Source of the DNA: an uncultured bacterium
GTDB lineage: Bacteria > CSSED10-310 > CAZUFC01
NCBI GenBank assembly: GCA_964619725.1
Contig: CAZUFC010000182.1
Location: forward strand, 1-13,439
DNA length: 13,439 nucleotides
Direction of reading: 5' to 3'
Positions 1,325 to 13,439 of the stretch are shown piece by piece; position 1 is the first letter of the stretch, and each line of letters starts with the position of its first letter. A program made the position numbers and the translations under genes. Under the pieces are notes generated by a model. The model was given only the letters and a program-made list of their open reading frames with translations. It was not told the origin of the DNA and made no database searches.

Positions 1325-2199
1325 ATGCGTGCAAAGAGGAGGGGCCGCGTGACTTTGAAGAGGAACCATAATTTGTCAAGCCGTAGGATTCTTGATCTGG
1401 CAGATGAAATAGAGACTATCGAGGCGTATCAAAAATCCGAGCGCCTTTCACAACTCCCACCGCATCAGCAGGAAGAAGTGTTCAAACGATTGCGCCCCAC
1501 ACACCAGTTCGAGATATTGCAACACCTGGATCAGCAATCGTGCCATACGCTCATCAGTTCACTCGAATCCGATGATCAGGTTCGCTTATTGATGCAAATG
1601 CCGCCCGATATGGCGGAGGAGGTGAAAAGACAGCTGTCGCCCGAAAAAGTGAAATTTATCGACCAACTCCTTCAGTATCCGGAGGAGTCCGCCGGCCGCA
1701 TTCTGACCCCGGCTTTCCTGGCGCTGTCGCCCGACATGACTGTGGGTGAAGCTTTGGCTGTCATTCGTGAAAAGGCAGGGAACAGAAAAACATTCTGGTT
1801 TTACCCGTCACCGACAGCGACGGCCGACTGATTGGACTGACCAAGTTGGAATATCTGGTATATGCCGGGGCTGGTACGAAGATCAAAGAACTGATGCAGG
1901 CGGACCCTCCCAGCATTCAGGCCGAAGAGGATCAGGAGTTGGTGGGCAAACTTATACAGACTGCCGATCTGCCGGCTATTCCGGTGGTGGATGATAACAG
2001 GCATCTGTTGGGAATCATCACGGTCGATGATGTGATGGATATTATGGAACTCGAGCATTACGAGGACCTGGCCCGAGCCGGGGGGACCGAGCCGCTTGAG
2101 AAGCCTTATTTCAGTATGTCGATCTTTCACCTCATGCGAACTCGAGTCGTATGGCTGCTCCTGTACTTTTTAACAGCCAAGGCCGTGCTTGGGGTCTAA
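1325..2199 (+). pseudogene. mgtE: Magnesium transporter MgtE, frameshifted and lacking the transmembrane domain
   Basis: MgtE N-domain and CBS pair are present: LLQYPEESAGRILTP..MTVGEAL, then in the -1 frame KNILVLPVTDSDGRLIG..EEDQELVG..AIPVVDDNRHLLGIITVDDVMDIMELEHYED..RTRVVWLL. The frameshift is near 1775-1790. The stop at 2197-2199 falls within or just after TM1. A possible alternative start is TTG 1373, after GAGGA. Confidence 0.85.
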
Positions 2200-3053: not shown

Positions 3054-3566
3054 ATGTTGGAAAAGATTCAAAATATTATGGAGAAAATGAGAAAGCGACT
3101 GCCCGGCACGTGGATACACCGGGTACTTGGCGAGAGTCTATTCCACGAGCATCTGTGGGTGCGTGATCAGCGTGCGGTTGCCGGCGGGCTCGCCATCGGG
3201 TTATTTGTTGCTTTCACGCCAACTATTCCACTTCAGATGTTTTTGGCTGCCGTGGGGGCTATTTATTTCAAATTGAATATTCCAATCGCATTGGCCGCAT
3301 GCTGGATAACAAACCCTTTGACCGCCGGCCCTATCTATCTGGCTTCATGGAAGGTCGGAAGATACATTCTCGAAAATTTTGCGGTATTAGGGAATTTTTT
3401 CGATTTTTTCGGTCAGGGTAGAATGCATTCCATAGTGAAGCAAAGCGCGTATTTATGGACTGGATCGCTGGTATTCGCGAGCCTGGCCGCTATTTTGGGC
3501 TATTGGGTGACCGTGATGTTCTGGAACAGGGTGACACAATGGCATAAAGAAAAAAAAGGGGACTGA
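3054..3566 (+). CDS. DUF2062 family membrane protein
   Basis: RAVAGGLAIGLFVAFTPTIPLQMFLAA..LNIPIALAACWITNPLT..PIY..VG signature and a hydrophobic C-terminal helix (LWTGSLVFASLAAILGY). Confidence 0.9.
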   Translation: MLEKIQNIMEKMRKRLPGTWIHRVLGESLFHEHLWVRDQRAVAGGLAIGLFVAFTPTIPLQMFLAAVGAIYFKLNIPIALAACWITNPLTAGPIYLASWKVGRYILENFAVLGNFFDFFGQGRMHSIVKQSAYLWTGSLVFASLAAILGYWVTVMFWNRVTQWHKEKKGD

Positions 3567-4010: not shown

Positions 4011-4046
4011 AAAAAGCCCCGGAATCATGTTATTCCGGGGCTTTTT
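4011..4046. terminator. Bidirectional intrinsic terminator downstream of the giant minus-strand gene
   Basis: AAAAAGCCCCGGAAT-catgtt-ATTCCGGGGCTTTTT is a perfect 15-bp inverted repeat with U-tracts on both strands, 18 nt past the stop codon at 4065. Confidence 0.92.
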
Positions 4047-4064: not shown

Positions 4065-4142
4065 TTAGTGTGATTTTTTGAGGATGATGAGTGAGAGGGT
4101 GACGATCAGGAGTGTGAGGATAGGGACTGAGGATGAGGGGAT
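4065..4142 (-). other. C-terminal anchor or sorting signal (IPTL-CTERM-like)
   Basis: IPSSSVPILTLLIVTLSLIILKKSH: motif, TM helix, basic residues. The paralog ends IPSASAGLLTLIVLIISVLISK. Confidence 0.6.
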
Positions 4143-7100
4143 ATCGTGAATTTCGGATTGGGAGTCAGATTTTTGATTTGAGAGTGCTGAGGCGAAGAGT
4201 TCTGTAGAGGAGGGTGAAGAGCAATCGAAGGTGAATATGCCGTTGTATGTATTGAATCCTGAGAGATGGTCATAGAGGTTTGTGATATTAATGTGTGATG
4301 TTTGTCCTTCGGAGCAGTCATTGCATCTGACTTTGAATTTAAGCAAGGCCAGGGCGCCGGATTCATTTTGATTGATTGATACGAAGGGATCGAATCCGGC
4401 AATTCTGAGGGTATTGTCCTGGAGCCTGTTGAAGTCGAAGAATCTGAAGCTGGAGGTAAGGTCTGCGGCGCGGCAGTCGATGAATTGCAGGATATCGGGA
4501 TCATATTGCAGGTCGAAGGCGAATGCCTGAACGTGTGATTGCATTTTAGCGATTCTGACAGGTATTTCGATAATATCGTCATGGCATCCGAAGGTTGGGG
4601 GCAAAGATATGCTGCCTTTGAAGGATTGTTTTTTCAGTTTCATGGCAGTTCTGGAACGGAATGCATTTTTCGCGACAACGGGGTCGGCGCAATCGCATGG
4701 CAGCCAGAGGAAGTGCTGGAAGATGCACTGGGCGTCTTCGGGAGTAATTTGCAGATTAGCGTTGCAGTCTGCGGAGCAGAGTTCTTCGAAGGTGGGGTAG
4801 GGGATGAGTTCCAGGTATAACTGGAATGTGATCAAGGCATCCATGACGGAGAGTTTAGCATCGTTGGTGACGTCTCCATCGTTCCAGCAATCGGGCGGGC
4901 ACGGGTCGCCTTGCCAGGCTTCGAGCCAGGGCGAGTATAGCACGTCGCCCCAGATTTCATCGCCGTTTCCGATTCCCAGGCCTGCGGGACCGCTGGGATC
5001 GCCCCACCAGTTGAAGTCGCACCGGAATGGTCCTCCTGCAGAGTCGTCATCGACGATAAGGCCGTAATTCTGGTTGCCCGCGAAATTATTGTATTCGGCA
5101 TAGCCTTTGGGGACGGCGTAGGGACCGGCGTAGGGTCCGGAGGCTGCGAAGATACGGAAGCCTTCGAAGTTGTTGATGATGTCGTTGCACATCATGAAGA
5201 GTTCGTCGACGTCCCAGAGTCTGATGCCCTGTCCGTCGCCGCTCTGTCCTTCGGATACGCCGTCGATGACGTTGTTTTCGATGACTGCGGTAACGGCGTG
5301 ATTGACTTCGAGGGCGGCCCACTGTTCGCCTGTTTCGCCGTGGTTTCCTCCGATATTCTGCCAGTTATTGTTTTTAATTTCTACGGAGGATGTTTTTGAG
5401 AGGTGATTGCCGCGCAGGGCCACTGTTCCGTTGCAGTCGTGAATATGGTTGTCGTTGAAAGTAATGCCGGTTATTTCAAATTCGTTTTCTCCTTTGGGAC
5501 CAGGAACGAAGGGGTCCATATCGAAGACGGAGAAACCGAGAATGTTTCTGAACTCGGTGTTTGTGATGGTGACTGAGCCGCTGATTCTGTTTCCGTAGAT
5601 GCCGTGTCGTTTGGGGACGTTTTCGCCGTCCAGGAGGCAGTCGTCCATGGTGAAGTTATGGACTGCGCCCGAGTTGCTGAACTGAACGATGCGGTTGTAG
5701 CCTGCTTTTCCTTTGAGGATGAGGTTGGAGATGGCGATGCCTGTAATATCGTAGTTGTTCTGGAATTTGATGCCTCCGTTGATGACGGGACGCGAGCCTG
5801 CATCGCTGGTGAGGGTAATGTCGTTTTTCTCGAACCATGGATCGAAGAGAATGGTTTCTTCGTAGGAGCCTTCGTTGACGTATACGGTTCCGCCTGATGA
5901 GACGGCGGGCAGAGCGTTTTTAATTTCTGCGAAGGCGTCGTACCCGAATTCATATTCGCCGCCGACTATTTCGCCGGGGGCCGTGCCGGTCCAGTCGTCG
6001 TCGACTCTGACGACGTTGGGAGCGATGGTGGGCGTAAGCGATGGTGTGGGAGTGGGCGAGACAGTGGGAGTTCTGGTGGGTGTGAGGGAGCCTGCGGGCG
6101 TGAAAGTGGCCGTGAATGTAGGGGAGCATGTGACGGTGGGAGTGGCGGTGATGGTGGGTGTCCTGGTGACGGTGGCGGTGAGGGTGGCGGTGGGAGTGAG
6201 CAGATAGAAGTTCTGTCCTGTGAGAAGGGTTCCAGAGACCTGGAGTCCGGCGAGGGATTGGGGCGCGTATCCTTGGGCGCCGGCGATAACGCTGTAGGTT
6301 CCATTGGGAATGCGTTCGATTTTATAATAGCCTGAGGCATTGGAGCCGTCCGGGTCTTTATATCCGTTGCCTGTGGCCACGACGGCGCCTTCCATGGGTT
6401 CCATCGTGCCGCCGTCTCTGACGTATCCGGTGATGCCGCCGCCGACGTGGAAGTTCCAGTTCCAGCCAGGTTCGTCGTAAAGGGTGGAATAATTGTTTGC
6501 GTCATGCGCTTCGACGGTCAGTTGCACGTAAGGGGAGCCGGAGGGTACGGTCCATTGCCAGGTATGGAAAGCTTCCTGGTTATGATCGAGACTGACGTTC
6601 CAGTCCTGACCTTCGTCATGGCTGTCCCATTCGACCGTGCCGGTATCCTGGTCGGTGTCGATTTTGAGCGTGTAGGCGGCGTTGTAGACGTTGAAAGGAT
6701 GGGGATTTTCAGCGCGGACCCGGATATGGACTGTTTCGCCGGGATAGAATGTTCGTGTGGGATTGTCTTCGATATCGTTAATATAGACGGACTGGACCCT
6801 GGGGTCCAGATCGAAGGTGATGGGAGCGCAGTTGTGCGGCATGAGAGCGGCGACGGCTTCGGCCTGGGAGAGGTTTTCCGCGCAGATATAGGCGGTTGAT
6901 GAGTCCAGAAGAATATAAGCCAGCGAACTTGTTGTGACGACGTAGTGGCCGCCGTTGAAGTGCTGGGTGTGAATGGAGAAGGAGTTTGAGGCGCTGCCGT
7001 TGGGATTGGCGTTGAGGAAACCGGGGTCGAAGGCGAACCCGTAAACGCCGTCGGGGATGATGTCGTTCAGTTCGCCGACGAGGTGTCCGTTGATGTAAAG

Positions 7101-10100
7101 GTCTATGTAGTGGGGCCTGACGTCTGAGCGGGGCGAGAAAATGGTGTAAATGACGGCCTGTTCGATGTCTTCGAGGGCGACGGAAACGTTGAAGCGCATG
7201 CCGATGTGTGGTCTGTTTGTGCAGAACCAGTCGGACATGGAGTAGCAGTATTCGGAGCCTTCGACGGTGACCTGGTAAAGTGATTTGGGTGAGAGGCATT
7301 CGAAAGTTACGGGCAGGGATACGGTTTCGTCTGCGGCCGAAGCTTTGAGTTGCCCGGAAAGCGTCGTAAGGCCGGGTTGGAACAGCGGTTCCAGCTCGAA
7401 TTCCTCGTATTCCAGGGAACCTACGTTGGAATGGTTGAACCGGGGAATGAACAGGGTGCGGCCCAGAAGTCCGTCTTCTGCGACGATCGACACGTCGGTC
7501 AGGGCGTCTCCGTTATTGGAGAATCGTAGCGTTTTGACCAGGGTGTCGGGGTCTTCGGATTCTTCTGTCAATTCGAAGTCGATCACGGGCCAGGAGACGG
7601 TGATGGAAGTGCGGGCGGAATCGGTGATGGGTTCGCCTGCTTCTTCTGCTGTGAGCATAACGACAACGTTGTCGAAAACGACGGGGCCGGGTTGAGTTCT
7701 CTGGACGTCCTGGGTGTGAATGACCAGTTCGACGGTTTCGGTCTGTCCGGGTTGGATGAGGACGGTTTCGTCTTCGCTGCCGGGACCGATGAAGTTGACG
7801 ATGAGCTCTTCGTTGGGATTGTCGATGCTGAGTTCCGCTTCATGGGCGATGACGTTCTGGTTATAGACCTGGATTGATGCATGCTGATCGTAATCTCTGT
7901 CGACGGTGAAATGGTAGGAGTCCTGATCGAATATGACGCCGTTGCCGACTTTGAAGGTCCATACGGCCGAGTCGGCGGAACCGCACAGTGAATCGACGTG
8001 CACGTACCATTCATAGACGGTGTTTCTGTCCAGGTTTTCCAATTCGGCATCATGCACGGTTTTACCGGAAGCGACCGGCGTCTGACTCCAGACCCCTGCG
8101 CCGGAAACTCTGCAGAAGAGGGTGGAATCGGCGGGAGATGATGTGGTGAAGCTGAAGGCGACGTCGCGTGAGCCGACGGTGGTTCCGTTGACGGGATGAC
8201 GTTGGGTGACGGTGATATCGCTGACGACATCCAGGTCCGCGTCGTCGGTGAAGGTTTCGGACATTTCCTGCGAATCGGCCTGGACCTGGAAGGAATAGGA
8301 GCCGAGAACCCCGCAGTTGTCCGGTATTGAAACGCTGAGTTTCGATTCGCCTTCTTCGCCTGCGTTGAGTTTCAGCGAAGCGGGTTCCAGGCTGTACCAG
8401 GCGGGCGGCAGCGTGCCGTCGACGGAAAGGTCGAAAGCATCGATGCCCAGGTTGTCGTTTTTGACGGTGATGTAGTATTTATAATCTGTTCCGGGAGCGG
8501 CCGAAGCGGTTTCCGGGAGCACGGTCAGGCCGACGGCATCCGGGCAGTATTTTATGGGAGCGGTCCGTGCGCCCGTGTTGTTGTTTTCATTGAGTTCAGA
8601 AACGTCGTCGTCTGCGTCGGCCGTAACGGAGATGACGGAGCCGCATACGGTCGTCCAGGTTTCCGAGAGGACGGCGGATTCGTCGACGTCGAGTGAGGCG
8701 ACGTTGTGGTCCGAACCGATCTGAACGGGACCGGAACCGTTGTCTTCGTAGAAGCGGACGACGAAGGAGCCTGAAGGAACGTTGCCGATGTTGGTCGTTT
8801 CGGCATCTATGCTTACCGTGACGTTTTCGTCGGGAACTGCGGGAGCGAAGGCGATGTCGGGGGCGCGAACCAGCAGATCGGCAGCGGGGTAAGGCGAATT
8901 AGTGGGTGAAGGGGTGGGCGTCCATGTGTATGTCGGCGGATATGTAGGCGTTCGAGTAGGCGTTTTGGTTGCGGTCCGTGTGGGGCTGAGCGTTGCTGTG
9001 GGCGAAAGGGTGGGAGTGGAGGAAAGCGTCGGCGTGGGCGTTATGGTGGGCGTTCGCGTTGCCGTGGGCGTATACATGCGGAAATCCTGATTTATGAGCA
9101 TCTCTCCCTGGACCTGGAGTCCTGTCAGAGCGCTCGGCGCATAACCTGCCGCAGAAGCTGTCACGTTGTAAGTTCCGTTCGGTATGCGTTCGATGCGATA
9201 GAAGCCTTCCGCATCTGTTCCGTCGGGATCGCTGTAACCTCCGGCTGCGGTAACCGAAGCTCCTTCCACGGGAAAGAGGAATATGCCGTCGCGGACGTAT
9301 CCGCTTATGCCGCCGCCGACGTTGAAGCCCCAGTTCCATCCGGGGCAGTCCCAGCATGTATCGTAGTCGGCGGCGTCATGCGCTTCCACCGTGACCTGCA
9401 TGGTGGGTGAGCCGCCGGGGATGGTCCAGAACCAGGAATGATAATCGTCGGAGTTGTGTTCCATGACCGCGATCCAGTCTTCGGCTTCCTGATAGCTGTC
9501 GTATTCAGGATTCTCCGTGTCGCCGTCGTAGTCTATTTTAAGGGTGTAACTGACGTTGTAGGCATCCAGGGGATGCGGATTCTCCGCGCGTATTTTCACC
9601 TGAACCGTTTCTCCGGGATAGAAGGTGTTCCGGGGATTACCCTGATCGTCGAGTATCCATACGGAGCGGATGCGGGGGTCCAGGTCGAAATCGTATTCGT
9701 CGCAGTTGTGAGGAAGGGTTAAAGCAATGGCTTCGGCCTGGGTCTGATTTTCTGCGCAGATGAAACCAGAGCTGGATTCCAGGGTCAGCGCCACCAGGTT
9801 GTTGGTGGATACGACGTAGTGGCCGCCGTTGAAATGTTGAGTGATCATTTTAAGCGTGTTGGAGCCTGTCCCGGAAGGATTGATGTTCAGGAAGGCGGGA
9901 TCGAACGCAAAGCCGTATGTTCCGCTGGGAACGACGTCGTTGAGCTCGCCGACCAGATGATTGTTGATGTAGATGTCGACGAAGTGGGGTCTGACGTCGG
10001 AGCGGGGCTGATAAGTCGTATAGACGACTGCGGTGTCGATGTCGCCTGTCCCTACCGATACGTGGAAACCCATATTGATGACGGGGCGGTTCGTGCAGAA

Positions 10101-12485
10101 CCAGTTGGCCATTGTGTAGCAGTATTCGGAACCTTGCACGTTGACTTCGTAAAGCGATTTGGGAGGATCGCAACTGAACGTCACCGGAAGCAGGACTTCG
10201 GTCCCGGCTGCCGTTGCGCTGAGATTGCCGGTCAAAGATGTCTGACCTTCCTGAAACAGAGGTTCGACCAGAAAGTCGGAGTGAGTCCCGCTGTTGATGA
10301 AATAATGGTCCACGTGAGGCAGGAACAACACGCTGCTTAAGAGGTCGCCATCCGCCGCCACCGTGACGTCGGTCAGGGGATCGCCGTCGTTGGTTATGCG
10401 GCAGGTCTTGACCAGGGTGTCGGGGTCTTCCGCTTCTTCGGAGAGGCTGAAGTCTATTACGGGCCATTGAACCGTGATCGCCGTGGGTGCAGAATCGGTG
10501 ATGGGGTCTCCGCCTTCGTCCGCGGTGAGCGTCACGGCTATATTGGTAAACGTTTTCTGACCCTGGGGGCCTTCTTCGACGTCCTGTGCGTGTATCACCA
10601 GCTCAATGTTTTCCGTTGTGCCGGGAAGAACGTTTACTGTCTCGTCTTCGCTTCCCGGTCCCACGAAATTGACGATCAGCTCGTCGTTTGGATTCTCTAT
10701 CTGAAGTCTCACTTCATGTTCGAGGATGTCCTGGTTGTAGACGGAGACCTGGGCGCCCTGGTCGTAGTCCCGTTCTACGCTGAAGGAATAGGAATCGTCG
10801 GTGAATATCACGCCGTTGCCGACCGTGAAACTCCACACGGGAGTATCAACCGATCCGCAAAGCGATTCGGCGCGTGCGTACCATTCATAGGTTTCGTTGC
10901 GGTCCAGGTTTTCTATTTCAATATTATGCGCTGTTTCTCCTTCTTGAACCTGGACTTCTGTCCAGTCTCCCGCTCCGGTCTGACGATAGAAAAGGGAGCT
11001 GTCCGCTTCGGTTGAAGTGTTCCAACTGAAAGTTATGTCGCGCGTTCCGGTGGTGGTTCCGTTGGTGGGATTGCGGCCGCTTATTTCGACGGTCGAAACG
11101 ACGTCAAGCTGTGCAGCATCGGTGAAAATTTCCCACATTTCGAAGGAACGGGCTGAAACTTCAAATGGATAGCTGCCGATGTCACCGCAGTCTTCGGGAA
11201 CCGTTACCATAAGATCGATTTCAGCGGTTTCGCCGGCGTTGACGGGGAGAGCCTGCTTTTCCAGCTCATACCAGCCGGAAGGAAGCGAGCCGTTGAAGAA
11301 CAAAGCGAAAAAATCCTCGCCCATGTTGCCGTTGGTTATCGAGACCTTAAATTCATATTCCGTGCCCACGTCCACCGCTGCGAGCTCAGGCGAAACGTTT
11401 ATCGTCACCGATTGCGGACAGAAGGTTATGGGCGCGTTGCGGCCCGCTGAATTGTTCGTTTCGTTCGATTCCGCCACTTCATCCAGTACATCGGCCGCGA
11501 CCGATATTTCGGCGCCGCATACCGCTGTCCAGGACTCCGCTAACTGATCTGATTCGCCGGGCGCCAGAGGTCCTAAAGGCTGGTCCGTTCCGAACTGAAG
11601 CGGCCCCGACCCGTAGTCCGCGTAAAACCTGACTGAAAATCCGGCCGCATCCTCGTTGCCTTCGTTGGTTACGAGAACGGTTACGGTTATCTCCTCGTTT
11701 TCTGAAGAATATGAGGGAAGGAATGAAAAATCCTGACTGCGAACGACCAGGTCGGGTTGAGGCATGGGCGTATGCGTCGCAGTGGGACTGGGCGTCCAGG
11801 TCATCGTCACGGTCCGGGTCGGAGACAGCGTGGGGGAACGTGTCGGAGAGAGTGTGGGCGAAAGGGTCGGTGAGCGGGTCGGCGTTCTGGTCGGCGTCCG
11901 CGTCGGCGTTCTGGTCGGCGTTTTGGTCGGCGTCCGCGTCGGCGATACTGTGGCCGTCGGTATGGCAGGTATGATCGGGACCGAGAAATAACGGTGACAG
12001 TAAAGATCATGTCCGCCGTTCGTCCAGATCGCACGACCCTGTATCCAGGTACCCCATCCATAACTGGCTTCCGTTACGGTCATTAAAGAGCCGCTAAAAC
12101 CTCCGGAACGCACAGTCCAGTACTGCATGTCGGAACCGTAAGTGTTTATGCTCTGAGTTCCGTTGGGAAATTTAAACGATCCGTCGCCCAGCGTGAATTC
12201 GCCGGCGAATCCCGCTATGCACCCGGAATCCCATCCGTCAATGTGCAAATAGTAGTACTGTCCGCCGGCATAATTGACTTCAGTATCAAAGTTATATGTG
12301 TGGGTCCAGTTGTTTCCTGAACCAAACTGTGAGCCGGCCGTCCCGTCATTAGTACTGATATAGACGTTGAAAGCATTATCTACCGTCATCGTCGCATGAA
12401 GATTCGTCGCCTGCGCTGAATCTAAACCTAGAATCATGACGGACAGGAAAATTGCTAATACGGCTATTATTCTTTCATGAAGCAT
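4065..12485 (-). CDS. Giant (2806 aa) secreted, C-terminally anchored multidomain surface protein or adhesin with CARDB, Ig/Fn3-like, CarboxypepD_reg-like, beta-helix, dockerin and cohesin domains
   Basis: Uninterrupted 8.4-kb ORF with RBS, signal peptide, three Thr/Pro linkers, CARDB motifs (PDLVV..VTNEG..ESNETNN), a C-terminal TM helix plus KK, and a terminator. Confidence 0.95.
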   Translation of the reverse strand: MLHERIIAVLAIFLSVMILGLDSAQATNLHATMTVDNAFNVYISTNDGTAGSQFGSGNNWTHTYNFDTEVNYAGGQYYYLHIDGWDSGCIAGFAGEFTLGDGSFKFPNGTQSINTYGSDMQYWTVRSGGFSGSLMTVTEASYGWGTWIQGRAIWTNGGHDLYCHRYFSVPIIPAIPTATVSPTRTPTKTPTRTPTRTPTRTPTRSPTLSPTLSPTRSPTLSPTRTVTMTWTPSPTATHTPMPQPDLVVRSQDFSFLPSYSSENEEITVTVLVTNEGNEDAAGFSVRFYADYGSGPLQFGTDQPLGPLAPGESDQLAESWTAVCGAEISVAADVLDEVAESNETNNSAGRNAPITFCPQSVTINVSPELAAVDVGTEYEFKVSITNGNMGEDFFALFFNGSLPSGWYELEKQALPVNAGETAEIDLMVTVPEDCGDIGSYPFEVSARSFEMWEIFTDAAQLDVVSTVEISGRNPTNGTTTGTRDITFSWNTSTEADSSLFYRQTGAGDWTEVQVQEGETAHNIEIENLDRNETYEWYARAESLCGSVDTPVWSFTVGNGVIFTDDSYSFSVERDYDQGAQVSVYNQDILEHEVRLQIENPNDELIVNFVGPGSEDETVNVLPGTTENIELVIHAQDVEEGPQGQKTFTNIAVTLTADEGGDPITDSAPTAITVQWPVIDFSLSEEAEDPDTLVKTCRITNDGDPLTDVTVAADGDLLSSVLFLPHVDHYFINSGTHSDFLVEPLFQEGQTSLTGNLSATAAGTEVLLPVTFSCDPPKSLYEVNVQGSEYCYTMANWFCTNRPVINMGFHVSVGTGDIDTAVVYTTYQPRSDVRPHFVDIYINNHLVGELNDVVPSGTYGFAFDPAFLNINPSGTGSNTLKMITQHFNGGHYVVSTNNLVALTLESSSGFICAENQTQAEAIALTLPHNCDEYDFDLDPRIRSVWILDDQGNPRNTFYPGETVQVKIRAENPHPLDAYNVSYTLKIDYDGDTENPEYDSYQEAEDWIAVMEHNSDDYHSWFWTIPGGSPTMQVTVEAHDAADYDTCWDCPGWNWGFNVGGGISGYVRDGIFLFPVEGASVTAAGGYSDPDGTDAEGFYRIERIPNGTYNVTASAAGYAPSALTGLQVQGEMLINQDFRMYTPTATRTPTITPTPTLSSTPTLSPTATLSPTRTATKTPTRTPTYPPTYTWTPTPSPTNSPYPAADLLVRAPDIAFAPAVPDENVTVSIDAETTNIGNVPSGSFVVRFYEDNGSGPVQIGSDHNVASLDVDESAVLSETWTTVCGSVISVTADADDDVSELNENNNTGARTAPIKYCPDAVGLTVLPETASAAPGTDYKYYITVKNDNLGIDAFDLSVDGTLPPAWYSLEPASLKLNAGEEGESKLSVSIPDNCGVLGSYSFQVQADSQEMSETFTDDADLDVVSDITVTQRHPVNGTTVGSRDVAFSFTTSSPADSTLFCRVSGAGVWSQTPVASGKTVHDAELENLDRNTVYEWYVHVDSLCGSADSAVWTFKVGNGVIFDQDSYHFTVDRDYDQHASIQVYNQNVIAHEAELSIDNPNEELIVNFIGPGSEDETVLIQPGQTETVELVIHTQDVQRTQPGPVVFDNVVVMLTAEEAGEPITDSARTSITVSWPVIDFELTEESEDPDTLVKTLRFSNNGDALTDVSIVAEDGLLGRTLFIPRFNHSNVGSLEYEEFELEPLFQPGLTTLSGQLKASAADETVSLPVTFECLSPKSLYQVTVEGSEYCYSMSDWFCTNRPHIGMRFNVSVALEDIEQAVIYTIFSPRSDVRPHYIDLYINGHLVGELNDIIPDGVYGFAFDPGFLNANPNGSASNSFSIHTQHFNGGHYVVTTSSLAYILLDSSTAYICAENLSQAEAVAALMPHNCAPITFDLDPRVQSVYINDIEDNPTRTFYPGETVHIRVRAENPHPFNVYNAAYTLKIDTDQDTGTVEWDSHDEGQDWNVSLDHNQEAFHTWQWTVPSGSPYVQLTVEAHDANNYSTLYDEPGWNWNFHVGGGITGYVRDGGTMEPMEGAVVATGNGYKDPDGSNASGYYKIERIPNGTYSVIAGAQGYAPQSLAGLQVSGTLLTGQNFYLLTPTATLTATVTRTPTITATPTVTCSPTFTATFTPAGSLTPTRTPTVSPTPTPSLTPTIAPNVVRVDDDWTGTAPGEIVGGEYEFGYDAFAEIKNALPAVSSGGTVYVNEGSYEETILFDPWFEKNDITLTSDAGSRPVINGGIKFQNNYDITGIAISNLILKGKAGYNRIVQFSNSGAVHNFTMDDCLLDGENVPKRHGIYGNRISGSVTITNTEFRNILGFSVFDMDPFVPGPKGENEFEITGITFNDNHIHDCNGTVALRGNHLSKTSSVEIKNNNWQNIGGNHGETGEQWAALEVNHAVTAVIENNVIDGVSEGQSGDGQGIRLWDVDELFMMCNDIINNFEGFRIFAASGPYAGPYAVPKGYAEYNNFAGNQNYGLIVDDDSAGGPFRCDFNWWGDPSGPAGLGIGNGDEIWGDVLYSPWLEAWQGDPCPPDCWNDGDVTNDAKLSVMDALITFQLYLELIPYPTFEELCSADCNANLQITPEDAQCIFQHFLWLPCDCADPVVAKNAFRSRTAMKLKKQSFKGSISLPPTFGCHDDIIEIPVRIAKMQSHVQAFAFDLQYDPDILQFIDCRAADLTSSFRFFDFNRLQDNTLRIAGFDPFVSINQNESGALALLKFKVRCNDCSEGQTSHINITNLYDHLSGFNTYNGIFTFDCSSPSSTELFASALSNQKSDSQSEIHDIPSSSVPILTLLIVTLSLIILKKSH
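4221..4616 (-). other. Cohesin-like domain
   Basis: IIEIPVRI..VQAFAFDLQYDPDILQF..LRIAGFD..GALALLKFKV. Confidence 0.8.
4689..4892 (-). other. Dockerin-like domain, Cys-rich
   Basis: Two F-hand loop-helix repeats, GDVTNDAKLSVMDAL and ADCNANLQITPEDAQ, with 6 Cys in the domain. Confidence 0.8.
4925..6017 (-). other. Right-handed parallel beta-helix (pectin-lyase-like) domain
   Basis: N-cap AFAEIKNALPAVSSGGTVYVNEGSYEE, repeated I.NN.I / F.DN.I rungs, and a C-cap NWWGDPSGP..YSPWL. Confidence 0.8.
6020..6197 (-). repeat. Thr/Pro-rich linker 3
   Basis: TPTATLTATVTRTPTITATPTVTCSPTFTATFTPAGSLTPTRTPTVSPTPTPSLTPT. Confidence 0.9.
6198..8879 (-). repeat. Internal module copy 2 (894 aa)
   Basis: Homologous to 9072..11753 with the same domain order: CARDB, Ig-like, Fn3-like, further beta-sandwiches, CTNRP/NGGHY domain, CarboxypepD_reg-like. 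Confidence 0.92.
8895..9071 (-). repeat. Thr/Pro-rich linker 2
   Basis: TPTATRTPTITPTPTLSSTPTLSPTATLSPTRTATKTPTRTPTYPPTYTWTPTPSPT. Confidence 0.9.
9072..11753 (-). repeat. Internal module copy 1 (894 aa)
   Basis: Aligns to 6198..8879 at a constant 2874-nt offset, checked at the start, WFCTNRP, NGGHY and the end. Confidence 0.92.
11765..11960 (-). repeat. Thr/Pro-rich linker 1 (TPTR / SPTL 12-nt repeats)
   Basis: Units GTCGGCGTTCTG and GTCGGCGTCCGC on the + strand; the protein reads SPTRTPTKTPTRTPTRTPTRTPTRSPTLSPTLSPTRSPTLSPT. Confidence 0.9.
11965..12407 (-). other. N-terminal beta-sandwich, lectin-like domain (~145 aa)
   Basis: MTVDNAFNVYISTND..GNNW..YYLHI..AGFAGEF..NGTQS..WG.W..AIW..YFS. 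It is aromatic-rich and resembles, from memory, the passenger domains of some small PEP-CTERM proteins. Confidence 0.5.
12408..12485 (-). other. Sec signal peptide (predicted cleavage SAQA|T)
   Basis: MLHERIIAVLAIFLSVMILGLDSAQA: short charged n-region, hydrophobic core, A-x-A site. Confidence 0.85.
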
Positions 12486-12491
12486 GGGTAA

Positions 12492-12498
12492 CTCCTTT
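12492..12498 (-). promoter_or_regulatory. Shine-Dalgarno sequence of the giant gene
   Basis: The minus strand reads AAAGGAG-ttaccc-ATG. Confidence 0.85.
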
Positions 12499-12510
12499 CA
12501 ACCCTCTTGA

Positions 12511-12580
12511 GTCAATAATGAAATATTGACCGAAAATCCTTTTAATTCATAATCAGTCTGATTTTGTATAAATACTGACC
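12511..12580. promoter_or_regulatory. Putative operator sites in the AT-rich intergenic region
   Basis: GTCAATA-N6-TATTGAC (12511-12530), AATCAG-T-CTGATT (12551-12563), and direct repeat AAATA[T/C]TGACC at 12521 and 12570. Confidence 0.45.
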
Positions 12581-12612
12581 TTAATAATTATATTTAAATC
12601 TTTTCCTTTCCA

Positions 12613-13439
12613 TTATTTTGCATTAATGTTTCCATAATTCTTAGAAATAAGAACAGAGATAATCAAAACGATAAGCGTGAGGAGTCCGGCGGAAGCGGAA
12701 GGGATGTAGTGACTGCGCGTAGAGGATTCTGAAGGCGATTGAGGATCAGCAGAGGCTTGAATTGAATGGGCGGCGGTTGAGGAGCAATTATGGGTAAAGT
12801 ATCCGTGTGATGCGCGGAAGGAGGCTATGTGGTCGTAGAGTCTGGCGAAGGAGAGGGAAGAAATGATGCCGTCGGGACATTCGGCGCAATTAACATTAAA
12901 CCGGAGGATTGCGATGGCTCCGTTTTCATTCTGCGTAATGGGCGTAAAGGGATCGAAGGCGGCGATTCTGATTTTATCAGAGTCGATGATGTTTGAATCG
13001 AAGAATCTGAAATGAGAAGTAATCGGTCCCTGTCGCGCTTCAATGAATTCCAGGATTTCGGGATCATATTGGATATCGAGAGCGAATGCCTGAATGGAGG
13101 ATTCGAGTTGAGCGATTTCGACGGGTATTTCGATGATGTCACCGTTGCATGCTGATGTATCAGGGAGAGAAATGATTCCCTGGGGTTTATGGTGATGGAG
13201 GGTGAGCGCATGTGAGGATGCTGAGGCATAACGATTTTCAGCAATGGGGTCTTCGCAATCGCAGGGGAGGAGGAGGAAGTGCTGGAAGATGCATTGGGCG
13301 TCGCTGGGGGAGATGTCGATATCGGCGTTGCAGTCTGCAGAGCAAAATTCTTCGTAAGTGGGGTAAGGAATCATTTCGAGATAGAGCTGGAAAGCAAGGA
13401 GGGCATCCCTGACGGTAAGCGCTGCATCGTTATTAACGT
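12613..13439 (-). CDS. 3' end of a paralogous surface protein: dockerin, cohesin, IPS-TM anchor; 5' end lies outside the window
   Basis: The frame is open to the window edge (VNNDAALTVRDALLAFQLYLEMIPYPTYEEFCSADCNAD...), so ATG 13374 is internal. It is clearly homologous to 4065-4892. Confidence 0.92.
   Translation of the reverse strand, partial: VNNDAALTVRDALLAFQLYLEMIPYPTYEEFCSADCNADIDISPSDAQCIFQHFLLLPCDCEDPIAENRYASASSHALTLHHHKPQGIISLPDTSACNGDIIEIPVEIAQLESSIQAFALDIQYDPEILEFIEARQGPITSHFRFFDSNIIDSDKIRIAAFDPFTPITQNENGAIAILRFNVNCAECPDGIISSLSFARLYDHIASFRASHGYFTHNCSSTAAHSIQASADPQSPSESSTRSHYIPSASAGLLTLIVLIISVLISKNYGNINAK

Follow-up and report, generated by a model that had tools for sequence, protein, structure and literature searches.

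Why would two neighbouring genes each encode a protein that ends in a dockerin, a cohesin and a tail of the kind that fixes proteins to the cell envelope? Cohesin-dockerin pairs are a classic device of modular extracellular assembly that has found wide use in engineering; their role outside plant-fibre degraders is poorly understood. The two genes, here called gene A and gene B, lie on one 13,439-base stretch of DNA (the window), which is the entire contig CAZUFC010000182.1 of a 344-contig, 9.17 Mb assembly (90.9% complete, 6.5% contamination) of an uncultured bacterium of the candidate phylum CSSED10-310. The list of open reading frames places both genes on the minus strand, at the coordinates given by a first-pass annotation made from the letters alone. 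Since the window is a whole contig, the 5' end of gene B is open: its visible part amounts to 274 amino acids (aa) and lacks the first ~15 residues of the dockerin. Our results suggest that the system is most likely a non-cellulolytic cohesin-dockerin surface assembly. We read A and B, with about even confidence, as enzyme-free giant surface proteins, predicted to be Sec-exported, that carry a dockerin, a type-I-like cohesin and an IPTL-CTERM-like tail at the C-terminus.

A dockerin-cohesin cassette at the end of both proteins

The two genes and the parts of their C-terminal cassettes are:

4065-12485, minus strand: gene A, 2806 aa (open reading frame, translation, Pfam)
4674-4907, minus strand: Cys-rich dockerin of gene A, two calcium-loop and helix repeats (Pfam, alignments, profile search, model and Foldseek)
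4206-4625, minus strand: cohesin of gene A (Pfam; Foldseek to type I cohesins)
4143-4205, minus strand: Ser-rich spacer of gene A (translation; predicted local distance difference test, pLDDT, <50 over cassette residues 239-264)
4068-4142, minus strand: sorting tail of gene A, IPSSS...ILKKSH (motif, hydrophobic helix, basic end)
12613-13437, minus strand: gene B, last 274 aa, cut off by the contig end (open reading frame and translation)
13246-13437, minus strand: dockerin of gene B, N-terminal ~15 residues missing (alignments)
12748-13182, minus strand: cohesin of gene B (Pfam; jackhmmer residues 86-230)
12616-12705, minus strand: sorting tail of gene B (IPSASAG...)

The first-pass annotation had proposed that the adjacent genes end in the same cassette, and the alignment bears this out, with 140 identities over 268 residues (52%, E 3e-103). 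Being only 52% identical, the cassettes also rule out that A and B are duplicates produced by the assembly. In both translations one reads, as had been described, a linker between dockerin and cohesin (~20 aa here, up to ~60 aa elsewhere in the genome), a Ser-rich spacer, and a tail made of an IPS motif, a hydrophobic helix and a basic end.

Both cohesins exceed the gathering cut-off of PF00963 (24.1 bits), that of gene A scoring 38.9 bits and that of gene B 36.2. An AlphaFold2 (AF2) model of the 284-aa gene A cassette, built with 17 paralogous cassettes as alignment, has a pLDDT of 84.2 and a predicted template modelling score (pTM) of 0.75, the cohesin itself reaching a pLDDT of ~95-98. Foldseek searches with this model gave 150 matches at E<=0.001. 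The top ones were type I cohesins (best 6kgf_A, E 5.8e-13, target-normalized template modelling score, TMt, 0.76), and all among the matches listed were cohesins, including 1aoh_A; the search also matched 2xdh, a non-cellulosomal cohesin of Archaeoglobus fulgidus. In the model, the gene A module thus adopts the nine-stranded beta-sandwich fold of cohesins and is type-I-like.

The dockerins miss the gathering cut-off of PF00404 (22.9): the module of gene A scores 12.3 bits (E 0.2) and no match is listed for that of gene B. Despite this, their annotation as dockerins stands, on three kinds of evidence. Firstly, of a jackhmmer family of 25 dockerin modules in the source genome, nine pass PF00404 in the genome scan, and it also gives hits at E<=1 to 10 of the 17 paralogous cassettes, the best at 1.2e-7. 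Secondly, a dockerin profile of 27 rows, including seven modules from relatives, has 4fl4_A as its best match among solved structures (E 5.8e-4). Its matches at E<=1 are dockerin-bearing chains in 18 of 20 cases, the other two being LGR4, and the alignments to 4fl4_A and 4uyp_B are in register over each of the two calcium loops. Finally, the gene A dockerin modelled alone has a pLDDT of 87.8 and three helices, at residues 25-35, 44-50 and 60-70. The best 23 Foldseek rows listed for it are all dockerin chains (E 0.014-2.6, TMt up to 0.87), for example 1ohz_B (TMt 0.87) and 2ccl_B (TMt 0.85, root-mean-square deviation 1.5 A). E-values this weak (>=0.014) are expected for a module of 60 residues. 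Both domains of the gene A cassette therefore model as the folds that had been assigned to them, the dockerin with its three helices as well as the cohesin.

The consensus of the dockerin family is CxNDGDVxNDGxLTPxDAQ...PTxEExCSADCNGDGxVTPxDAQCIF...CxCxDP. We scored the ligand positions 1, 3, 5, 9 and 12 of the calcium loops: Asp or Asn is retained at positions 1, 5 and 12 in gene A and likewise in the visible part of B, and the two dockerins are 72% identical to each other. The module had rightly been called Cys-rich, since that of gene A has seven Cys, six of them conserved across the family and all six kept in A and in the visible part of B. In the 27-row alignment (cassette numbering), five rows lack both C65 and C75 and no row lacks just one of them, one row lacks both C11 and C48, and C52 and C77 are present in all. 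These paired losses suggest that this Cys-rich subtype has three disulfides, predicted as C11-C48, C52-C77 and C65-C75, a pattern taken from the 27-row alignment alone, the C-terminal Cys columns being poorly aligned among 150 representative proteins.

Tailed sockets and untailed plugs across the genome

The sorting signals of exosortases and archaeosortases are cleaved, and the substrates and products of this type of sorting are poorly understood. We searched frames of >=200 aa for tails with [IV]P, a hydrophobic run of >=14 residues and K/R close to the end. The pattern occurs in 204 of 5508 frames, versus 6-14 in random internal windows of the same frames. Pro is at position 2 in all 204 tails and Gly at position 8 in 158, with the consensus (I/V)-P-A-(L/A/F)-(S/G)-x-x-G-(I/L)-(L/I)-L-L, that is, a motif (I/V)P-A-x-x-x-x-G followed by a transmembrane helix and a basic end. 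Many tail-bearing frames are very long (85 are longer than 1000 aa and 30 longer than 2000 aa, and there are frames of 12,092, 8,482 and 6,404 aa). Together they make up 258,692 aa, or ~8.5% of the genome, a share that evidently gives the surface coat a central place in this lineage.

IPTL_CTERM (TIGR04174) is the commonest NCBIfam match of these tails, found in 4 of 12 consensus-like tails at E<=0.055 and passing its cut-off in one of the 12 (23.4 vs 20.5); the 'midcut-by-XrtH' model weakly matches four of the 12. The genome has one exosortase-family gene (contig C134, 12958-13527; C-numbers denote contigs of the source assembly), which passes the exo_archaeo signature with 65.7 bits (cut-off 23). 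No sortase (PF04203) was found in the genome at its 90.9% completeness. The first-pass annotation had called the tail a membrane anchor. The IPS motif, the hydrophobic helix and the basic end are indeed there, but given the 204 tails, which lie nearest to IPTL-CTERM, and the exosortase-family gene, the tail of A and B is probably a divergent IPTL-CTERM-like, processed sorting signal rather than a plain anchor. A set of 204 frames is very large for one exosortase gene. This gene adjoins a divergently oriented gene on the opposite strand that encodes an 879-aa tail-bearing protein, and downstream of it lies a gene for a 214-aa membrane protein of no family.

How are tails distributed among the proteins with cohesins (sockets) and dockerins (plugs)? 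Pfam genome scans and jackhmmer sets, combined over stop-to-stop frames, identified 55 module-bearing frames: 20 dual, 16 dockerin-only and 19 cohesin-only (one cohesin match and one dockerin match could not be placed in a frame). Tails end 14 of the 19 cohesin-only frames, five of the 20 dual frames (gene A, gene B, and frames on C7, C19 and C34) and none of the 16 dockerin-only frames; a fifteenth cohesin-only frame, on C154, has a variant tail outside the pattern. That sockets are tailed and plugs are not is the strongest argument that the modules work as receptor and ligand on the surface of the cell. The rule would reflect a logic of receptor on cell and ligand on cargo, in which dockerin-bearing cargo appears to have no other means of attachment. 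The genome-wide count of dual and single-module proteins, which had been put forward as a check, thus points to the non-cellulosomal cohesin-dockerin surface assembly that the first pass had envisaged.

In its standard form, the system has its sockets on tailed proteins with one to five cohesins and its plugs on untailed giant cargo encoded directly upstream. The gene that follows an untailed giant with the dockerin-cohesin cassette, at a distance of a few bases or overlapping it, encodes one to five cohesins, a Pro/Thr-rich (PT) linker and a tail. Such pairs of cargo and anchor genes are found at C2 (twice), C8 (where two giants precede a five-cohesin protein, C8:63831-66596), C15, C20, C64, C97, C154, C86 and C122, and a second dockerin subtype has the same pairing at C106 and C19. 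A and B represent a rarer, fused form, a single chain that holds cargo, plug, socket and tail. Within the Cys-rich subtype, 20 of the 25 dockerins have a cohesin after them in the same frame. A 21st such cassette, at C12:40015-40775 (minus strand), is split over three frames with an internal TAG, probably because it is a pseudogene or because the assembly is wrong there. Two dockerins that pass Pfam (C9:20059-20217 and C45:21436-21597) lie near the N-terminus, not the C-terminus, of ~3000-aa frames, the one on C9 directly after a 5416-aa tail-bearing frame. Three near-identical contig pairs carry module genes (C276/C277, C42/C81 and C86/C122), which may reflect strain heterogeneity or recent duplication.

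What the cassettes carry can be seen in gene A, whose protein runs from a signal-peptide-like start through a ~150-aa domain, a PT-rich linker, two ~930-aa units, a second PT linker and a ~340-aa region to the cassette:

12408-12485, minus strand: predicted Sec signal peptide, residues 1-26 (...LDSAQA), read by eye from the translation
11961-12407, minus strand: N-terminal ~150-aa domain, the distal tip of the protein, no known family
8991-11768, minus strand: repeat unit 1 (CARDB, Ig-like parts, CarboxypepD_reg), by Pfam and unit alignment
6111-8903, minus strand: repeat unit 2, by Pfam and unit alignment
4908-5930, minus strand: region before the cassette, with a weak DUF4957 match (E 0.0085)

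The two units share 519 of 928 residues (56%), and Pfam finds CARDB and CarboxypepD_reg in two stretches each, that is, in each unit. The N-terminal domain has no Pfam match and its Atlas look-alikes, scoring <=0.87, are uninformative. The region before the cassette is possibly a beta-helix, judging from the equivalent region of the paralog on C7, which matches Beta_helix at 26.5 bits. With their CARDB, Ig-like and CarboxypepD_reg repeats, the passengers of A and B look like adhesins. Pfam finds no glycoside hydrolase (GH) family in gene A, in agreement with the earlier remark that no cellulase is recognizable.

A cellulosome-like degradative complex might nevertheless be considered, in which beta-helix cargo would act as polysaccharide lyases or hydrolases docked on scaffoldins and digest polymers. 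The genome does have scaffoldin-like proteins: tailed proteins with two to five cohesins occur at C2, C8, C15, C20, C64, C97 and C154. Of the 17 cargo giants, 11 are rich in Beta_helix, most with NosD too, and the Beta_helix fold is common to pectate lyases. There is also a precedent in Cloacimonadota, for which a cellulosome-like complex has been proposed (PMC8542988). Yet none of the 17 giants and neither of the two window genes has a GH, lyase, peptidase or carbohydrate-binding module (CBM) at E<=1e-4, in a screen of these proteins that was not a genome-wide search for GH-dockerin proteins, and the CARDB and Ig-like repeats of A and B are typical of adhesins. The cargo, overall of beta-helix, CARDB and lectin-like kinds, also includes CARDB with CarboxypepD_reg in two giants (C7, which also has FG-GAP, and C34), Laminin_G_3 in two (C18, and C122 under the cut-off) and PLD-like with TIG in one. 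We regard a degradative complex as very improbable.

The module arrangement extends to relatives of the source genome. Among the 30 nearest genomes, a cassette profile matches nine of the 13 same-phylum species and none of the 17 of other phyla, with up to 84 matches in one 4.6 Mb same-phylum genome; a homologue of the exosortase is present in all 13 and in one of the 17, respectively. Against 1.84 billion representative proteins, the profile gives 3760 matches at E<=0.001, of which 271 reach E<=1e-30, part of them being the source genome's own proteins, and a single matched stretch covers both dockerin and cohesin in 51 of the 150 matches listed. A search for related loci with the gene A cassette alone found no relative, while a five-row cassette alignment gave at least six confirmed loci of at least 591 pattern matches. 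Among the matches listed, the module-bearing records come from candidate division CSSED10-310 (three loci) and 'uncultured bacterium' (two loci); these labels, too, make it probable that the source lineage falls in CSSED10-310. A search with rpoB found no close named relative, its best full-length match, to a metagenome-assembled genome, being at 63%. In all seven loci of relatives that carry it (L143, L145-L150), the dockerin-cohesin cassette is the end of the protein, without a tail, and in two loci of candidate-division metagenome-assembled genomes the protein ends in a dockerin alone. The genome announcement of CSSED10-310 predicts its members to be Gram-negative, and its main text is silent on cohesin or dockerin modules (PMC8248873).

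Possible pairing between chains or within one

For A and B, we consider a network in trans, with cohesins and dockerins pairing between chains, to be the most likely arrangement, and we hold this view with roughly balanced conviction. After export, the single exosortase-family enzyme would recognize the tail and fix the protein at the envelope. The membrane-proximal cohesin could then capture the dockerin of another giant, possibly that of the neighbouring paralog, and the protein's own dockerin would plug into a neighbour's cohesin or into a multi-cohesin anchor. The outcome would be a Ca2+-dependent, non-covalent protein coat, cross-linked or daisy-chained. As tandem paralogs, A and B are the obvious candidate partners.

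In a tree of 53 cohesin modules, whose bootstrap is not fully settled, the cohesins of A and B are sisters (100/98) and group with other tailed-cassette (class-1) cohesins at an open fork (93/67). Those of four cassettes (C64, C97, C20 and C276) fall within the clade formed by the cohesins of the anchors encoded next to them (100/99). Cargo would then re-offer a socket of the same kind as the one it occupies, which would allow chain extension. In a stronger version of the trans reading, which we put forward tentatively and think rather doubtful, each cassette would be a chain link, its dockerin inserted into the previous cohesin and its cohesin serving as the next socket. Head-to-tail polymers would grow from exosortase-processed multi-cohesin roots into a branched, calcium-held and disulfide-stiffened brush, the outermost coat of a double-membraned bacterium, with no role in polymer digestion.

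The same tree contains a very divergent clade of eight cassette cohesins (98/92), six of which sit on end branches of 1.0-2.0, as expected if these modules were no longer general sockets. This agrees with an alternative in which each dockerin pairs with, or packs against, the cohesin of its own chain, making the cassette a rigid unit: the base of a stalk, for instance, or a plug kept auto-inhibited and protected until it is assembled, or else a dockerin stabilized by the neighbouring beta-sandwich in the way of the X module in X-dockerin pairs. In the 284-aa model of the gene A cassette, the pTM of 0.75, together with a pLDDT >90 for both modules and a disordered linker, indicates a fixed mutual arrangement. 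The order of dockerin then cohesin and the short linker are also conserved, in 20 of the 25 frames of the subtype and in the tail-less relatives. However, AF2 may dock any cohesin-dockerin pair that it recognizes, and four cassette cohesins nest among anchor cohesins. Pairing in cis would also leave unexplained why tailed multi-cohesin genes always follow untailed cassette proteins, unless the clasp opens. We find this alternative, the main rival of the trans network, unlikely, if worth keeping in view.

Another possibility is that the dockerin of A and B is a decayed relic and that both are self-anchored giant adhesins whose cohesin recruits other dockerin proteins. Their dockerins do score lowest in the family against Pfam, with Gly6 gone from each loop, and their cohesins score well and fall with those of other tailed cassettes at the open fork described above. 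Against this, gene A and the visible part of B keep Asp or Asn at loop positions 1, 5 and 12 and the six family Cys; the gene A module also models confidently as a dockerin (pLDDT 87.8), and the 72% identity between the two dockerins argues for constraint. A socket-only role for A and B thus seems improbable to us.

Several observations weigh against the trans network and the sorting mechanism on which we build it. No other dockerins of the family diverge as far as those of A and B. In each of their calcium loops another residue stands in place of Gly6 (A/L in gene A, A/I in gene B), and the first loop of gene A has Thr at position 3, so that calcium binding and cohesin binding of these dockerins may be weakened. 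The cassette model reaches its pTM of 0.75 with about a quarter of the residues disordered or in the tail, which suggests that it packs dockerin and cohesin in cis. As for the sorting signal, curated NCBIfam CTERM models match none of six tails (A, B and four other cassette or anchor proteins), the tail of gene A lacks the conserved Gly of the motif, and the exosortase falls under the cut-offs of XrtH (TIGR04177; 76.6 vs 86) and ArtB/archaeosortase B (78.2 vs 150). A gene A protein of 2806 aa would also need a route across the outer membrane. Finally, the frames of the inventory run from stop to stop and are not curated genes, and the counts are approximate, being inflated by the near-identical contig pairs and by the 6.5% contamination.

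This genome provides an unusually clear and testable case, with a strict rule of tailed sockets and untailed plugs, a conserved gene pair and a cassette that might extend chains. If the binding is real, the system offers new orthogonal, possibly redox-stabilized connector pairs. If the chain-link version holds as well, it would amount to an envelope layer that assembles itself from the parts of cellulosomes.

Known systems and the surroundings of the locus

Scaffoldins and adaptor scaffoldins of cellulosomes carry cohesins and a dockerin on one chain, as in CipA, OlpB and SdbA of C. thermocellum, ScaA and ScaB of A. cellulolyticus, and ScaB and ScaE of R. flavefaciens. The likeness to our system lies in the multi-cohesin proteins fixed to the cell, which amplify docking sites, and in the type-I-like folds. 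Cellulosomes differ in having GHs and CBMs, S-layer homology (SLH) or sortase anchoring, and a C-terminal dockerin that follows the cohesins, none of which holds for the proteins examined here.

The IPTL-CTERM/exosortase H system (TIGR04174, TIGR04177) has a comparable tripartite tail and one small exosortase-family enzyme for many targets. It differs in the motif, which is (I/V)P-A-x-x-x-x-G here, in that the tails of A and B have no TIGR04174 match, and in the score of the enzyme, which stays below the XrtH cut-off as given above. An IPTL-CTERM domain has been predicted in an S-layer protein of Methylomirabilis (PMC8671808).

Other proteins, too, carry both modules. The cohesin of Amy4 from the amylosome of R. 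bromii, which has a dockerin as well, binds its own dockerin, from which the authors deduced multimerization; they add that such self-pairs are known in other systems and that the complex reaches the cell via a separate anchored cohesin protein, Sca2 (PMC4611034). A and B resemble Amy4 in having cohesin and dockerin on one protein, secreted in Amy4 and predicted to be so in A and B. Amy4, however, comes from a Gram-positive Firmicute and is an enzyme of family GH13, with a C-terminal dockerin and a sortase-dependent anchor protein. A and B, in contrast, have giant enzyme-free cargo, a dockerin followed by the cohesin, a Cys-rich dockerin and their own exosortase-type tail.

In anaerobic methanotrophic (ANME) archaea, single proteins combine one dockerin with as many as five cohesins (PMC9012536). 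Like A and B, these and the A. fulgidus proteins combine the two modules without cellulose degradation, and a role in cell-surface organization or cell-cell contact has been suggested for them. They are archaeal, are described as domain lists and use other sorting systems, whereas the source genome belongs to a bacterial candidate phylum and has a fixed dockerin-cohesin cassette at the C-terminus, a conserved pair of cargo and anchor genes, and an IPTL-like tail. The statement of the first-pass annotation that the partners normally sit on separate polypeptides was therefore too strong, given the scaffoldins, Amy4 and the ANME proteins, and the dual arrangement is not unprecedented. The idea that the dual cassette itself might already be characterized holds to the extent that proteins with both modules are known; the fixed C-terminal order of dockerin and cohesin sets the present one apart. 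Our system differs from the known ones in its candidate phylum, fixed cassette, Cys-rich dockerin, enzyme-free giant cargo, pair of cargo and anchor genes, and IPTL-like exosortase signal. Searches of the literature, in which subscription journals are largely not covered, found nothing that joins cohesin, dockerin and PEP-CTERM, or CSSED10-310 and dockerin; the single paper found in which cohesin, dockerin and exosortase all appear is on ANME and deals with each on its own.

Two further features frame gene A in the window:

12486-12612, minus strand: AT-rich spacer of 127 bases that separates gene B from gene A and contains the Shine-Dalgarno sequence AGGAG
4011-4046, no strand assigned: palindromic hairpin of 15 pairs with A and T runs on its flanks, 19 nt past the gene A stop

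The AGGAG lies 8 nt upstream of the gene A ATG. The hairpin is likely a bidirectional terminator, as judged from its sequence. In a scan of the window for promoters and terminators, terminator-like sites numbered 10, versus 11.2 in shuffles, and the 15-pair hairpin alone stands out. The four sequencing runs that carry the source DNA are all DNA runs of one study, and no RNA run is listed.

The left part of the window holds genes unrelated to A and B. A DUF2062 membrane protein gene (3054-3566, plus strand, 120 bits) is convergent with gene A, with the hairpin between them. Farther left, an MgtE-like gene (1325-2199, plus strand) appears broken, its MgtE_N part (1325-1831) and CBS part (1846-2199) being in different frames, and no membrane domain lies downstream of the CBS domain. 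Elsewhere in the assembly, the normal rpoB on C180 has a very divergent counterpart, an rpoB-like frame of 1903 aa (C78:14707-17577) with scores of 249 and 225 bits, under the cut-off of TIGR02013; this second frame may be contamination or a paralog.

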